This document shows positions 369-7,400 of a stretch of DNA of 64,000 nt, in pieces (the stretch's first letter is position 1; every line of letters starts with the position of its first letter). The stretch is from Eledone cirrhosa (Eukaryota), in contig OZ024742.1 in the NCBI GenBank assembly GCA_964016885.1, positions 172,918,001 through 172,982,000 on the forward strand, read 5' to 3'. The position numbers and the translations under genes are program-made. The notes below the pieces were generated by a model. It worked only from the letters and a program-made list of their open reading frames with translations, searched no databases and was not told where the DNA came from.

Positions 369-1151
369 ATAAATTGAAACAAAATGAAAACGAAATTTCA
401 TTTCTCACTCTTAGTATGGCACTTACTTAAATGTAAGTATGCATGTATACGTACATACATACATGTATACAGACGTACAGTAGCATGCACATATATATAT
501 ACATATACATATATACATACATATGCATACAGGTACACATACATATATGCACGTATCAGTTTAGCGGCGCTAACGTCGCTTTGTTCGTTTGTAAACAAAC
601 TGAACAGCCTGAATTTATGCCATACGGTGTTAAGGCAACCACGTCACCTTTTTGTTCAACACTGACACAGGAACGATGTACTAGTTTCAAGCTTGTTAGC
701 TATCATCAGCACCGTTTACCCATCTGCCAGATAGTTGAACGTTCGAAAGTATATACTTTCCTTATGAAAATTAACGGCTGAGCAGCCTAATTTGCATATT
801 GAGTGAGTTAAATCGGTCAGGCATACCGAAAACGATAAATTGAAACAAAATGAAAACGAAATTTCATTTCTCACTCTTAGTATGGCACTTACTTAAATGT
901 AAGTATGCATGTATACGTACATACATACATGTATACAGACGTACAGTAGCATGCACATATATATATACATATACATATATACATACATATGCATACAGGT
1001 ACACATACATATATGCACGTATCAGTTTAGCGGCGCTAACGTCGCTTTGTTCGTTTGTAAACAAACTGAACAGCCTGAATTTATGCCATACGGTGTTAAG
1101 GCAACCACGTCACCTTTTTGTTCAACACTGACACAGGAACGATGTACTAGT
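369..1151 (-). repeat. 466-bp tandem repeat (about 1.7 units) carrying a hammerhead ribozyme; retrozyme-like
   Basis: Unit starts ataaattgaaacaaaatg at 369 and 835, and the ORF track repeats at +466. It is flanked by (TA)n on both sides. Confidence 0.9.
672..716 (-). ncRNA. Minimal type I hammerhead ribozyme (470-bp family)
   Basis: Minus strand reads aacggtg CTGATGA t agc taacaa gct t GAAA ctag TA catcgtt: 7-bp stem I, canonical core, palindromic stem III, GUA site. Confidence 0.88.
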
Positions 1152-1331
1152 ATATATATATATATATATCTGTGTGTGTGTGTGTGTGTGTGTGTGTCTG
1201 TGTGTGTCTGTGTGTGTCTGTGTGTGCGTGCGTGTGTGTGTGTGTGCGTGCGTGTGTATGTATATGGGGGCGTAGTGTGGCGTGCCGGTGTGTTTGTACA
1301 TGTAGATATGTTTCATTATTCCAATATACGT

Positions 1332-1513
1332 TGGATTGGCAGTATCGGTAGAGAGTCGGACGCCATGCTTTCCAGCATACTTACGTCCCGTTACGATCTG
1401 AGTTCAAATCCCGCCGAGGTTGACTTTGCCTTTCATCCTTACGGGGTCGATAAAATAAAGTACCAGTATTGCACTGGGTAATTGCTGGCCTTGTGCCTAA
1501 AGTAGAAACAATG
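1332..1513 (+). mobile_element. tRNA-derived SINE
   Basis: A-box-like tggcagtatcggtaga, B-box gagttcaaatcc and core gcctttcatccttacggggtcgataaaataaagtacc; about 10 dispersed copies in the window. Confidence 0.85.
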
Positions 1514-1887
1514 ATTCCAATATACGTATTTGTGAACGCTGGTATATGTAAATGATTATGAACCACATTGGGCTGTGATCTTCCAGATTCTAATTGCCAA
1601 TGATTCTTCCCTTCCGAACCCTCTTTGGTGTCTTGGGATACAAAATCGTGGTGCGTCCATTCAACGCCTCCTAGGACAGGTCGCATGGAATGGACACTGC
1701 GATATATTTTTTCTAACAGGCCCCTCTCCTAAATACCTGAATGCGTCCCTTGTTAAGGTGCGGTAATGATAATGCGATATGGGCCATTACTCGTCCTGCA
1801 GCTACCAGATTATATCGCAACTAAATATCATCTCTGATCGGTCTATCACTATTTCGAACCTTTGATCCATTCTGTATAACATCTCTG

Positions 1888-2851
1888 GGGACGAGGAAAT
1901 TTGGCCTAAGATTGTAAAAGCCTTAAGTAGAGAAGTTATTCACTAGCTGACTCATGTTGGCATGGACATCTCCGGTTGGCCTGGATATCTGGAAAAGTAC
2001 CTAAACCTTTTCAATCGAGAGTAATTATCCCGATTTTTAAAAAGGGGAGACAAGCGAGATTGCTACAATTGTAGAGGGATCTCTTTGTTAAGCCTACCCG
2101 GTAATGTCTATGCTAAGTCTTTAGCAAATAGATATAGGGAGAATGTTGAGTCCAGGCTAGCCAATGAACAGTGCGGATTTCGCCCTGGACGCAGCACGGT
2201 TGACAATATACTCACCCTGCTGCACGTCTTGAGAAATCGTGTGAGTACTACCATTCAATCGGAGAGTCGGACTCCTTCAAGTGTGCGTACTCTTACCTGT
2301 CTTGTTCCTCATTTTCATGAACAGTATTTACATACACAACCTGGTTGGAAGTAGTATCAAGAATGGCAAGTGTAGAATGAGTCGTTTTGAATTTGCGGAC
2401 GACATGGTACAACTAACTCGACAGAAGGTGATTTTAACTTACGTTTGATACGTTAGATGTCGGGTGCGGCATAGCTGGAAGGATAAGCGCTGTTTGCAAC
2501 CTGCATGTGAATTTATATCCGCTGAAGCAGGTGTAGAATTTCAAGTACCGTAGGGCGGTGTTCATGTGTGATGGAGGAAAGGAAGCAAGAATAGCAGTAA
2601 CTCGTCTAGTAATGCGCTATCCTCAGCATTCGGTAATCAGAAGATGTGTGGTTGGTATAAAAGCTAAACACGCTTTCATAAGTTCGGTATTCGTACCAAA
2701 CTTTGCCTATGATCATGAATCTTGGGTAATGACCGAACGAATACAATCGCGAATACAAGCAGACAAATCTGGGTTCCTTCGAATTGTCTATGGAGTTACG
2801 ATACTCAATAAAGTGGGTAGCTCGGTTATCAGAGAAATTCACTCCAGTTAG
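1888..2851 (+). pseudogene. Degenerate LINE reverse transcriptase fragment (RTE-like)
   Basis: Translates to VIIPIFKKGDKRDCYNCRGISLLSLPGNVYAK...EQCGFRPGRSTVDNI, FADDMV and YDHESWVMT, with stops, frameshifts and deletions. Confidence 0.85.
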
Positions 2852-4140: not shown

Positions 4141-4185
4141 AACGATGTACTAGTTTCAAGCTTGTTAGCTATCATCAGCACCGTT
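4141..4185 (-). ncRNA. Hammerhead ribozyme (470-bp family)
   Basis: Identical to 672-716. Confidence 0.88.
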
Positions 4186-4358
4186 TACCCATCTGCCAGA
4201 TAGTTGAACGTTCGAAAGTATATACTTTCCTTATGAAAATTAACGGCTGAGCAGCCTAATTTGCATATTGAGTGAGTTAAATCGGTCAGGCACACCGAAA
4301 ACGATGAATTGAAACAAAATGAAAACGAAATTTCATTCAACTATCTGGCAGATGGGTA

Positions 4359-4403
4359 AACGGTGCTGATGATAGCTAACAAGCTTGAAACTAGTACATC
4401 GTT
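4359..4403 (+). ncRNA. Hammerhead ribozyme (470-bp family)
   Basis: aacggtg CTGATGA(4366) tagctaacaagctt GAAA(4387) ctaGTA catcgtt; predicted cleavage after 4396. Confidence 0.88.
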
Positions 4404-7400
4404 CCTGTGTCAGTGTTGAACAAAAAGGTGACGTGGTTGCCTTAACACCGTATGGCATAAATTCAGGCTGTTCAGTTTGTTTACAAACGAACAAAGCGAC
4501 GTTATAATAAGCGCCGCTAAACTGATACGTGCATATATGTATGTGTACCTGTATGCATATGTATATATATATGTATATATATATATATATATGTGCATGC
4601 TACTGTACGTCTGTATACATATATGTATGTACGTATACATGCATACTTACATTTAAGTAAGTGCCATACTAAGAGTGAGAAATGAAATTTCGTTTTCATT
4701 TTGTTTCAACATATATACATACATATATATATATATATATATATATATATAGGAACCAGTAAGACCCCGACGGCTGAGCTCAAGCCGTCACGACGGCTAA
4801 TTCCGTCTAGTATTAGCCGTCGAAAGTATTGAGTACTTTGGTGCGTTATGGCCCACCTGGTTCCTTACCACATTTCCTTCGTTATATATATATATATATA
4901 TATATATATATATATATATATATATATATATATATATATATATATATATATAAACATTTATATATATATACATACGAAGTGACATACATATTTACACTCT
5001 TCCAAAGAGTAAGATTACAATGCATTCATACACACGAGCAGAGACAATCACATACACCAACTCGTAGAATGATCCACGTAGAAACATGTAATACAACATA
5101 AAAGATAAAATGGTTTATATAAGTATTCATATATATATATAAATATATATATATATATATCACGCACCAAGACTGTACAAAGTCTGATTCACTGACTTGA
5201 AGCCTATTCCCCTCTTGGACTCAACTCAGCTCCCCAATTTCTCTAATACCCTGTCCATTATCATACTCCTAGATCCCTATCGCTTTCTCTTGATCATTAA
5301 CATCTTCTCTTAAAACTAATACAGGCCGACTATATATGCTCCACTTTCCCCTTCACTTCTGTGTATACACACATACACACTCATATAATAACATAATCTT
5401 GCTCATAGCTTCGTACTTACATGCACACACACTCTTTTACTCACATATACGCACACATTTCTTCTTAGCTTCGTACGGACCTATAACACGGGCGCGCACA
5501 CAGACACACACATGCTTACGCACTTGCACAAGTATAGCTCTTTTACAAAACGTTTTTTTTTTCCATTTCAGGTACAAGCGCTCCAACATCCACTTTTCTC
5601 AAAAAATAAATCATTACACATAACGCCAGCACCAATAGTTTTGCAAGAGATGTCATCGTGAATGGACATGTTATTTTTATCTAAAGACATTTGTTTCCAA
5701 TTCCAAACACACCCGTCCCCTCAATCTATCTCATTTCTCACTCTTTCTTTTGATGAAAATCTAGCGTCCGAAACGTAAAGTCCCTCTTCCTGTTATATCA
5801 AGCGTTAACCTAACATAGCCGTTCCATATAACGTACCGATTGTGTTGCTATTTCTGTTTACCTTTTACATATATATACATCACATAAGAAACGGAGTATC
5901 AGCGTTGCGACGAATACAATTTATTAGACATATTTCAATCGTTTCTCTGGCGACCTGCTCGAGGCACGATCGATGTAATGATCGAAACAGACTCTGAAAT
6001 CGCAAGGTCCTCAGATACGTCTCGATTCTACGAAGCAGAGTTTCCAAATATCCAGTTACACCCGCTGTCCTCATTCGGCAGCTTAGATCCTGTTGTTGTC
6101 ATTCTATGAGAAGTCAAGAATTGTACACGTCATCGGTAGTTTTGGCCACTCATGGCAGTCCTGGATTTGGTTCCTTTCATTCGAAACCTGTCAATCAAAA
6201 TTGTTTCTTAAGTCGGAATTACTACTGTAGGAGGTAATGGGTTGTATGATTGAACCGCTCGAGCCCTGTAGCCGCCTTCTCAAACTGTCGGCGCCCGCAC
6301 CCATGAGTATGTTTCGCGTAAGCGTGATACATACGGGCACTTATACACCCCAGAGATCACGTACACACCCGCAACTATATTATATGCGACAATCACATTA
6401 GATATTGAATGCGCAGCGAGTAATTAGAAAGAATTGAAAAAAAAAGGAAAAAGTATTTAACAGAACGTTTCAGAAAAACAGCCTCAAAATACCTTAAAAA
6501 ACACACATTTCAAAAAGAAAAACCCTGTAAATAAATGTCTTTAAAAGAATGCTTGAAATAGCCTTTCAAAAAAGTTAATCCAAAGGTATTTTTGATAAAT
6601 ATACACATATCTACACACACACTGTGATCAGGAAAGCGTATATAGTTAAGATGTATACATACAGATGAGAAAATGGAAGACCTACACATACACATGCACA
6701 AACACAGACATGTTCATACAAATACATCCACCCAGACATGTATACACATGCATGTACGCATACGTGCGTGGGCACACATACATACATGTATCCGAGCATG
6801 GGCATGCTTATACATCTAAAAAAAAAGCACTAACTTGATGACTACCTACACAGCCACACGCACACACGCAACTGTGCACATGGCGCATAAAATATATGAG
6901 ACAACATACTTGAAGCTTGTACCCAACCCATTCATGTCGCGATATAAGCCTAAAAGTGCATGCACAATATGCATAAATGTAATATCTACGTAGTAGCCAT
7001 GCCCTAATCACTGATAACATGGGTGGCACTTATATATAAATGGTTGTATGTACATAAAATAAAATAAAATAAAATAAAATAAAATAAAATAAAATAAAAT
7101 AAAATAAAATAAAATAAAATAAGTTAAAATAAATACTGTAAAAGGAAATGTATACATGACAAGATGCAGACAAGGTTCACGCCACCCGGACATTATTGGG
7201 ATGTGCATAAAGTTTCATAAAATACTTAAGGACTATGGTGCATGCGGTTATATAAGATACAGAGTGACTGACGATCCAAGGGTAACAGCGTGAACATCAA
7301 CCATACACACGAGACATGTTCCATGGCTGGTGGACACAGGCCGTGTATGCATACTCAAACAGGTTATATATATTGTGAATGTGTAGAATATCCTTTTCCT

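Follow-up and report, generated by a model that had tools for sequence, protein, structure and literature searches.

The repeat and its insertion ends

We have analysed a 64,000-nucleotide (nt) stretch of the genome of Eledone cirrhosa (GenBank assembly GCA_964016885.1, contig OZ024742.1, positions 172,918,001 to 172,982,000, forward strand), hereafter called the window, which carries near its start a non-coding tandem repeat with a type I hammerhead ribozyme in each unit. The repeat is a very abundant retrozyme without long terminal repeats (non-LTR retrozyme), a class that is already known. Its genomic copies sit in (TA)n in the manner of Penelope-like elements (PLEs), and it is likely copied from an RNA circle by a protein of one Penelope lineage, here named PLE-B.

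Genome copies were located by pattern searches for the ribozyme. The exact 39-nt core occurs 10,198 times in the 3.0-Gb genome, which is far above chance, and a relaxed ribozyme pattern 26,510 times; the reversed controls gave 0 matches in both cases. The copies form dispersed short arrays with one type I hammerhead per unit, the longest of at least 16 units (L067; L numbers denote individual loci), and whole cut-to-cut units measure 419–556 nt (n = 81). The sequence-only reading of the window had proposed a non-LTR retrozyme family, and the short non-coding units, their dispersal and their copy number bear this out. Unit positions are counted from the first base after the predicted ribozyme cut, position 1 being 4147 in the reference copy 4147-3674 (minus strand).

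We mapped the unit on 52 loci, excluding short AT-rich side matches and arms cut by a locus edge. The 3′ ends lie in 84 of 93 cases at one of two fixed sites some 57 nt apart, ~259 (39 ends) or ~318 (45 ends), and 78 of these 84 adjoin (TA)n. Permuted insertions, as envisaged earlier, are not what we observe: the 3′ ends keep to two internal sites, whereas the 5′ ends vary, at random along the unit. Among 33 head-to-head pairs (we also found one tail-to-tail pair), 30 could be scored: 24 combine one 259 end with one 318 end, two have two 259 ends, none has two 318 ends, and four include an odd end. For 24 of the 26 classified pairs to be of the mixed kind has, against an even chance, a p of about 5e-6 (hand calculation). 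The longer arm may be of either kind (13/24), and the inverted arm is therefore not a fold-back copy.

An older 424-nt subfamily (49 loci) has the same two 3′ ends, and two autonomous Eledone families, PLE-A and PLE-B, pair a short with a tailed end in 17 of 19 and 8 of 11 two-armed loci, respectively. In vitro, a Penelope reverse transcriptase (RT) was shown to start at two internal sites bounding the tail and to extend both target strands (Frangieh 2024, PMC11167929). On these grounds, the 3′ ends of the repeat most plausibly mark two sites of RT initiation, one on each target strand. Fixed 3′ ends, an optional tail, 5′ truncation, an inverted arm and partial tandems, all of them traits of non-autonomous PLEs, are present. 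Insertion by Penelope machinery, earlier suspected as the work of a PLE RT with a GIY-YIG endonuclease, is highly probable on the genomic evidence of this end pattern and of the four chimeras described below. In one locus (L347), the same head-to-head insertion occurs twice with identical breakpoints (1593-2781 and 4179-5367), which points to a later DNA duplication.

Layout in the window

The features of the repeat family in the window are the following:

369..1151, minus strand: insertion 1, a single arm of ~1.65 units (466 bp each), running at its 3′ end (369, unit ~318) into (TA)n; 5′ end at 1151, 7 nt upstream of a cut site
672..716, minus strand: type I hammerhead of insertion 1, predicted cut between 679 and 678
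785..799, minus strand: 15-nt element of U6/U6atac/RNase MRP type (unit 354-368), TATA-like box at 749-756
3413..4337, minus strand: inverted arm of insertion 2, ~1.95 units (474 bp each), with an untailed 3′ end at unit ~259-263, into (TA)n
3667..3711, minus strand: type I hammerhead of insertion 2, predicted cut between 3674 and 3673
3780..3794, minus strand: U6-type upstream element, TATA-like box at 3744-3751
4141..4185, minus strand: type I hammerhead of insertion 2, predicted cut between 4148 and 4147
4254..4268, minus strand: U6-type upstream element with two whole ribozymes downstream of it and a TATA-like box at 4218-4225
4336..4709, plus strand: forward arm of insertion 2, covering unit 414-474 followed by 1-313 and placed head-to-head to the inverted arm; tailed (~57 nt) 3′ end at unit ~313, into (TA)n
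4359..4403, plus strand: type I hammerhead of insertion 2, predicted cut after 4396
4526..4646, plus strand: purine-pyrimidine (TA/TG) tract, predicted long hairpin
33022-33340, plus strand: fragment of an older relative, 72-84% alike (group 33022..35254)
34405-34836 (minus) and 34850-35254 (plus): head-to-head insertion of an older relative, 72-84% alike
46644..47394, plus strand: older relative (71-79% alike) with a hammerhead core at 47111 and an upstream element at 47021

The span 369-4709 had been taken as one array: the repeat is there, but as two insertions separated by ~2.2 kb of unrelated repeats. (TA)n adjoins all four outer ends, as claimed, and the unit spacings of 466 bp (369/835) and 474 bp were given correctly. 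The four hammerhead motifs (672, 3667 and 4141, minus; 4359, plus) are present with identical sequence. Insertion 1 has just one whole ribozyme, and the sole whole cut-to-cut monomer within 369-4709 is 4147-3674. The units were said to have no credible open reading frame (ORF), and we agree: no ORF is conserved between arrays. The longest ATG ORFs on the ribozyme strand of two long natural arrays are of 48 and 63 amino acids (aa), and an antisense ORF of 129 aa in one of them is not matched in the other, where it reaches 55 aa.

Unit length variation probably arises mainly from the TA/TG tract. This tract also accounts in part for the strong folding score of the whole unit (z of -9.1; -4.5 once the tract is removed), while the score of the 63-nt ribozyme stretch by itself (z of -0.68) is unremarkable. 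Rfam microRNA matches on TA tracts were below the cut-off and were set aside as low-complexity noise.

Penelope families and the likely partner

The window includes a young autonomous PLE of Hydra type, PLE-A, which the sequence-only reading had missed:

8526..15366: PLE-A, ORF 11692-13833 (plus strand), head-to-head arms, tail of ~160 nt, in (TA)n

Over 3017 nt, its two arms in the window show 100% complementarity, and the genome contains many near-identical copies with frames of 832 codons. A stem III-like half ribozyme lies in PLE-A ~40 nt ahead of the first 3′ end; the canonical CTGANGA core was not found in it, and a Pfam search gave no significant family. The second family, PLE-B, has an 821-codon open frame with 40% identity to PLE-A and falls among the HTH_animal/GIY-YIG clusters of the atlas consulted. 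Both carry the motifs DKT, CxCX5C, CxxC and CxH described for the Hydra clade (Craig 2021, PMC8557442).

The retrozyme unit is joined to the PLE-B ORF without a TA spacer in three loci. In L031, the 259 end of the unit is combined with the tailed end of PLE-B; in L034 and L244, the short end of PLE-B is combined with the 318 end of the unit. Each of these clean chimeras thus has one tailed and one untailed end, as expected from template switching within one insertion event. A fourth, complex joint (L337) involves a relative whose endonuclease is 66-72% like that of PLE-B. Two of the four (L031 and L034) are among the 52 unit loci, L337 belongs to the 49 loci of the older subfamily, and L244 is one of 60 PLE-B loci, L190-L219 being set aside in the survey. 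At other Penelope fragments near units, TA or other sequence lies between. PLE-A, with the same target and end pattern, was considered as a partner and rejected, none of 40 PLE-A loci being joined to the unit. The likely mobiliser of the repeat, judged by these joints, is the PLE-B lineage of the Hydra clade.

The chimeras also bear on the possibility that the family is a DNA-level repeat, either a satellite or a non-autonomous rolling-circle element of Helitron/Helentron type, in which the hammerhead occurs by chance. Elements of that type are likewise arranged in tandem and combine a fixed 3′ end with an internal microsatellite and a 3′ hairpin, and short shared tracts in L040 fit DNA conversion. 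Such an origin is largely refuted by the joints to Penelope ORFs; the two alternative 3′ ends, one per arm exactly as in PLE-A and PLE-B, the short and dispersed arrays and the conservation of ribozyme and promoter-like element on one strand likewise speak against it, and we hold it to be very improbable.

Alternatively, the units could be solo or tandem pseudo-LTRs (pLTRs), or an internal deletion, of an unsampled autonomous Penelope that itself owned the ribozyme and the promoter. The units mirror PLE-B in layout, the ribozyme being followed by the first start site, the tail, the second start site and the promoter region; pLTR homology is reported for many Xenopus retrozyme families (Li 2026), and the genome holds more than 60,000 endonuclease candidates, 150 of them being scored in each search. 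Against such a parent, no ORF enters the unit at a repeated joint among the 52 and 49 loci, the chimeric joints differ in position, the unit is without homology to the Penelope families tested, and the host-type upstream element (see below) is absent from PLE-A and PLE-B. This alternative appears improbable; as an account of origin, it is compatible with the explanation that we prefer, mobilisation by a PLE-B-lineage protein.

The hammerhead ribozyme

The 45-nt motif reads, in order, stem I, CTGATGA, stem II, GAAA, CTAGTA and stem I, with 6-7 base pairs in stem I, four in stem II (with U.U at its base) and the palindrome ACUAGU in stem III; the cut had been placed after 4396 in the plus-strand motif 4359-4403, and we predict the same. 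It had been described as a minimal hammerhead with a palindromic stem III. The palindrome and its dimer-favouring character stand, while by the definitions of Cervera 2014, which set the canonical metazoan type I form against the minimal form of PLEs, the motif is canonical type I, a form for which activity as a dimer is expected.

In 246 copies, the core (CUGANGA, GAAA, UH and three helices) is intact at ~98-100% per position, H17 being G in a single copy. Common variation is confined to N7, H17, loop II and the outermost pair of stem I. In an independent run at 85% likeness, the sole places in the motif with changes of at least 10% were N7, loop II and that outer pair. Pair 3 of stem I is G.U in 166 copies, U.G in 56, A-U in 14 and C-G in two, and is paired in 239 of the 246, so that compensatory change in the helices is seen, though at this pair alone, stems II and III showing hardly any variation. 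Between five subfamilies, variation affects 5 of 45 columns of the ribozyme, versus 38 of 123 at positions 8-130. The predicted dimer fold (-20.8 kcal/mol) lies less than 1 kcal/mol off the best cofold, which favours the mechanism proposed below.

A U6-type upstream element

Unit 354-368 matches an element located at -76 to -78 in host U6, U6atac and RNase MRP genes, which had escaped the earlier reading. The host element was taken from the best U6 gene of each of three promoter types, the best U6atac gene and the single RNase MRP gene. With the resulting five-site matrix, the unit scores 20.7 bits, compared with 18.5-21.1 for the five host promoters; none of 2000 shuffles and no site in 892 kb reached this score. 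All six matches of at least 14 bits in the window fall in the retrozyme family in sense orientation, and only one of the 15 element columns varies between subfamilies.

Among the upstream regions inspected, the element is present in 5 of 9 U6 and 1 of 8 U6atac copies, those without it being taken as pseudogenes or disrupted copies. The RNase P RNA gene and three U2 promoters are without the element (U2 scores of 3.2 bits or less). In the loci L141, L143, L161, L162 and L354, the upstream motif of the RNase P RNA gene is U2-like rather than U6-like, and a C-rich 9-mer occurs at about -260 to -269 in two U2 and two U6 promoters.

A TATA-like box follows the element after 42 nt in 176 of 184 copies, versus 46-48 nt in the host genes, and the implied transcription start, ~428-433, lies just ahead of the ribozyme. 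It is fairly probable that the upstream element is used in transcription. Its use by RNA polymerase III (Pol III) as the source of the full precursor is more doubtful: the TATA spacing is 4-6 nt short of the host spacing, which counts against it, and host U6-type genes terminate in T5 or more. The longest T run is 3-4 nt in 42 of 81 units and 6-8 nt in the other 39, and these T6-8 runs would be expected to stop Pol III before a full precursor is made. A Pol III promoter of tRNA-like type is known from the Schistosoma Sm-alpha repeat.

Template and proposed mechanism

The joints between units across the cut are exact in 138 of 138 cases. Of 86 scored 5′ ends (those in the TA tract being dropped), two are no more than 5 nt away from the cut and three fall at 425-436, in both cases at chance level; the insertion of linear cut monomers, proposed earlier, does not agree with this. 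Across the genome, TA-flanked starts show no excess at the implied transcription start (31, versus 49 at a control position; minus-strand matches), and SINE-like (short interspersed element) copying of a primary Pol III transcript was rejected for want of such a pile-up. Together, exact joints, 5′ ends at chance and the lack of a pile-up indicate a template that is continuous through both cut and promoter.

Within 36 multi-copy arrays, 96 variants are fixed throughout their array (eight of them private, in six arrays) and 16 are partly shared; the arrays represent 20 haplotypes, each uniform within its arrays. This uniformity would result from a repeated monomer-to-multimer step. Reverse transcription around an RNA circle is a published proposal (Cervera and de la Pena 2020, PMC7229834; Cervera 2014), and on the array pattern we regard an RNA circle as the likely template. 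A joint that "goes back 468" in two of three low-depth runs labelled as other organisms (unit depth 5-30) was not counted as evidence for circles or for the range of species, as a DNA tandem gives it too.

In the mechanism that we propose, the upstream element of one unit would drive transcription into the following units. Neighbouring ribozymes are predicted to pair via the palindromic stem III and to excise a monomer; this would be sealed into a circle by a ligase of the host. The Penelope protein would then nick both (TA)n strands and, as the DNA pattern suggests, two cDNAs would start, at ~259 and ~318, each circling the template until a random stop to leave head-to-head arms of 0.1 to more than 11 units. 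A new round could begin from any daughter that includes the promoter together with two ribozymes. In its full form, a captured U6-type promoter by which each unit drives the next, and a circle copied by a dimer of an unrelated Hydra-clade Penelope protein with one site per strand, the scheme is put forward tentatively.

Several points weigh against it. As regards the ribozyme, the Rfam search did return a hammerhead family as best match, Hammerhead_HH9, but at 18.5 bits (E 0.029, 201-nt stretch) and thus short of the gathering score of 52, and the motif is not among the 150 of 268 Rfam matches listed for the whole window. Conservation in the sampled loci is inflated because these were found with ribozyme patterns. 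Pair 10.1/11.1 is U.U in 236 of 246 copies and C.A in eight, versus the usual G-C, although U.U at the base of helix II also occurs in the active axolotl HHR_Amex2 (PMC7229834), and the best fold of the monomer (-9.5 kcal/mol) competes with the ribozyme fold without stem III (-7.4 kcal/mol). With respect to the partner, its call rests on four chimeras, a small number, and the unit has no match better than E 0.2 with PLE-A, PLE-B and two PLE-C flanks. As for the template, the joint count covered near-exact continuations only, and exact joints also fit uncut multimers. A few variants in L040 and L067 are common to some units of both arms, which implies conversion or a multimeric template.

These last points lead to the alternative that Penelope copies long uncut linear multimers, the hammerhead cutting rarely or later and no circle being formed. 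In the single Penelope system studied in vitro, ribozyme cleavage is reported to be unneeded, unprocessed RNA being the main template (Frangieh 2024, PMC11167929), and only one of nine Xenopus retrozyme dimers was cleaved, the other eight remaining uncleaved (Li 2026, bioRxiv 10.64898/2026.07.22.740005); both results also count against the circle. The U.U closing pair with the competing monomer fold, and the 16 partly shared variants, some spanning both arms, equally suit uncut multimers. Linear copying, however, can only make arrays shorter, whereas arrays of at least 16 units exist (L067), and the 20 array-uniform haplotypes need the monomer-to-multimer step time and again. There is no 5′ pile-up at the implied start, and the ribozyme is conserved, with compensatory changes. 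We therefore consider copying from uncut multimers unlikely, though the least so of the alternatives.

Other repeats in the window

CTGANGA motifs in other repeat families are located at 8355 (minus), 8410 (plus), 40273, 40792, 41487, 44757, 48983, 49302, 50394, 50690, 51212, 53678, 56354, 56609, 57899 and 58128; most have a downstream GAAA, several are in inverted or direct pairs, and they are probably Penelope-type hammerheads. Remnants of Penelope-type endonuclease ends were found with tblastn at 7949-8182 (minus), 20949-21212 (minus) and 31414-31717 (plus).

A dispersed SINE-like repeat occurs at 1323-1516, 24197-24597, 37125-37334, 60541-60734 and 61780-61989, and the same type replaces the upstream element of some U6 copies (L167, L173). 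A decayed fragment resembling a long interspersed element extends over ~1530-2880, with a stretch near 2160-2220 that we take to be RT-like. A short hairpin-rich repeat (4752-4882, 44373-44480, 62406-62457) also ends in (TA)n and often adjoins units at other loci (L001, L041, L046). A spacerless palindrome of 404 bp, 99% complementary, lies at 46047-46450.

Comparison with known systems and implications

The non-LTR retrozymes of coral, mussel and axolotl (PMC7229834) are, as described there, likewise non-coding tandems of low GC with a type I hammerhead and thousands of copies. Among these, axolotl HHR_Amex2 shares the basal U.U mismatch of helix II and is cleaved better in dimeric form. They measure ~170-400 nt, compared with 419-556 nt for the Eledone unit, and their circles have been shown, whereas that of the Eledone repeat is predicted. 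Reverse transcription of the circles by Penelope proteins was put forward as a proposal (Cervera and de la Pena 2020, PMC7229834); for the Eledone repeat, the end pattern and the chimeras provide evidence for such a partner. The retrozymes of Xenopus and other vertebrates (Li, Clavereau, Pollet 2026, bioRxiv 10.64898/2026.07.22.740005) also occur beside PLEs, as monomers, dimers and multimers. Many Xenopus families are homologous to pLTRs, while the Eledone unit is without homology to its likely partner; insertion ends, chimeras and promoters, analysed here, are not treated in the part of that preprint available to us.

PLEs of the Hydra clade (Craig et al. 2021, PMC8557442) share (TA)n targets, 5′ truncation, an inverted arm, a tail at one end and a canonical hammerhead with the Eledone repeat. 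They encode a protein, whereas the repeat encodes nothing, and their tails of 30-40 nt are shorter than those of the repeat (~57 nt), PLE-B (100 nt) and PLE-A (160 nt). A Hydra family from octopus appears in the supplement of that paper. The Poseidon element PAc of Anolis (Frangieh et al. 2024, PMC11167929) likewise has two internal RT starts bounding the tail and an AT-rich target, of which both strands are cut and extended. In PAc, the start sites were not seen to differ between the strands, whereas the two-armed Eledone insertions have nearly all one site per arm. Newt satellite 2 and Schistosoma Sm-alpha are hammerhead tandems with a promoter of their own, so that one unit drives the next (PMC2220036, PMC6765202); in newt satellite 2, the promoter is of small nuclear RNA type and used by RNA polymerase II, whereas the Eledone element matches host U6-type and not U2 genes.

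In the literature consulted, we found no description of the family itself, though the supplements of Cervera 2020, Cervera 2014 and the Li preprint may list relatives, nor of joints between retrozymes and Penelope elements, nor of a retrozyme that carries a U6-type element. The mobiliser protein, the circular template and the transcription of animal retrozymes have, in the sources available to us, so far been proposals. The Eledone family supplies a candidate helper with intact ORFs, a 474-nt template, two start sites and a candidate promoter, and the questions of mobiliser, template and transcription therefore become testable in vitro. The one-site-per-arm rule, seen in two autonomous families as well, bears on the origin of Penelope inversions and tails. 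If the captured-promoter reading is true, the family would provide a named pair of retrozyme and helper, along with a general rule for how Penelope inversions form.

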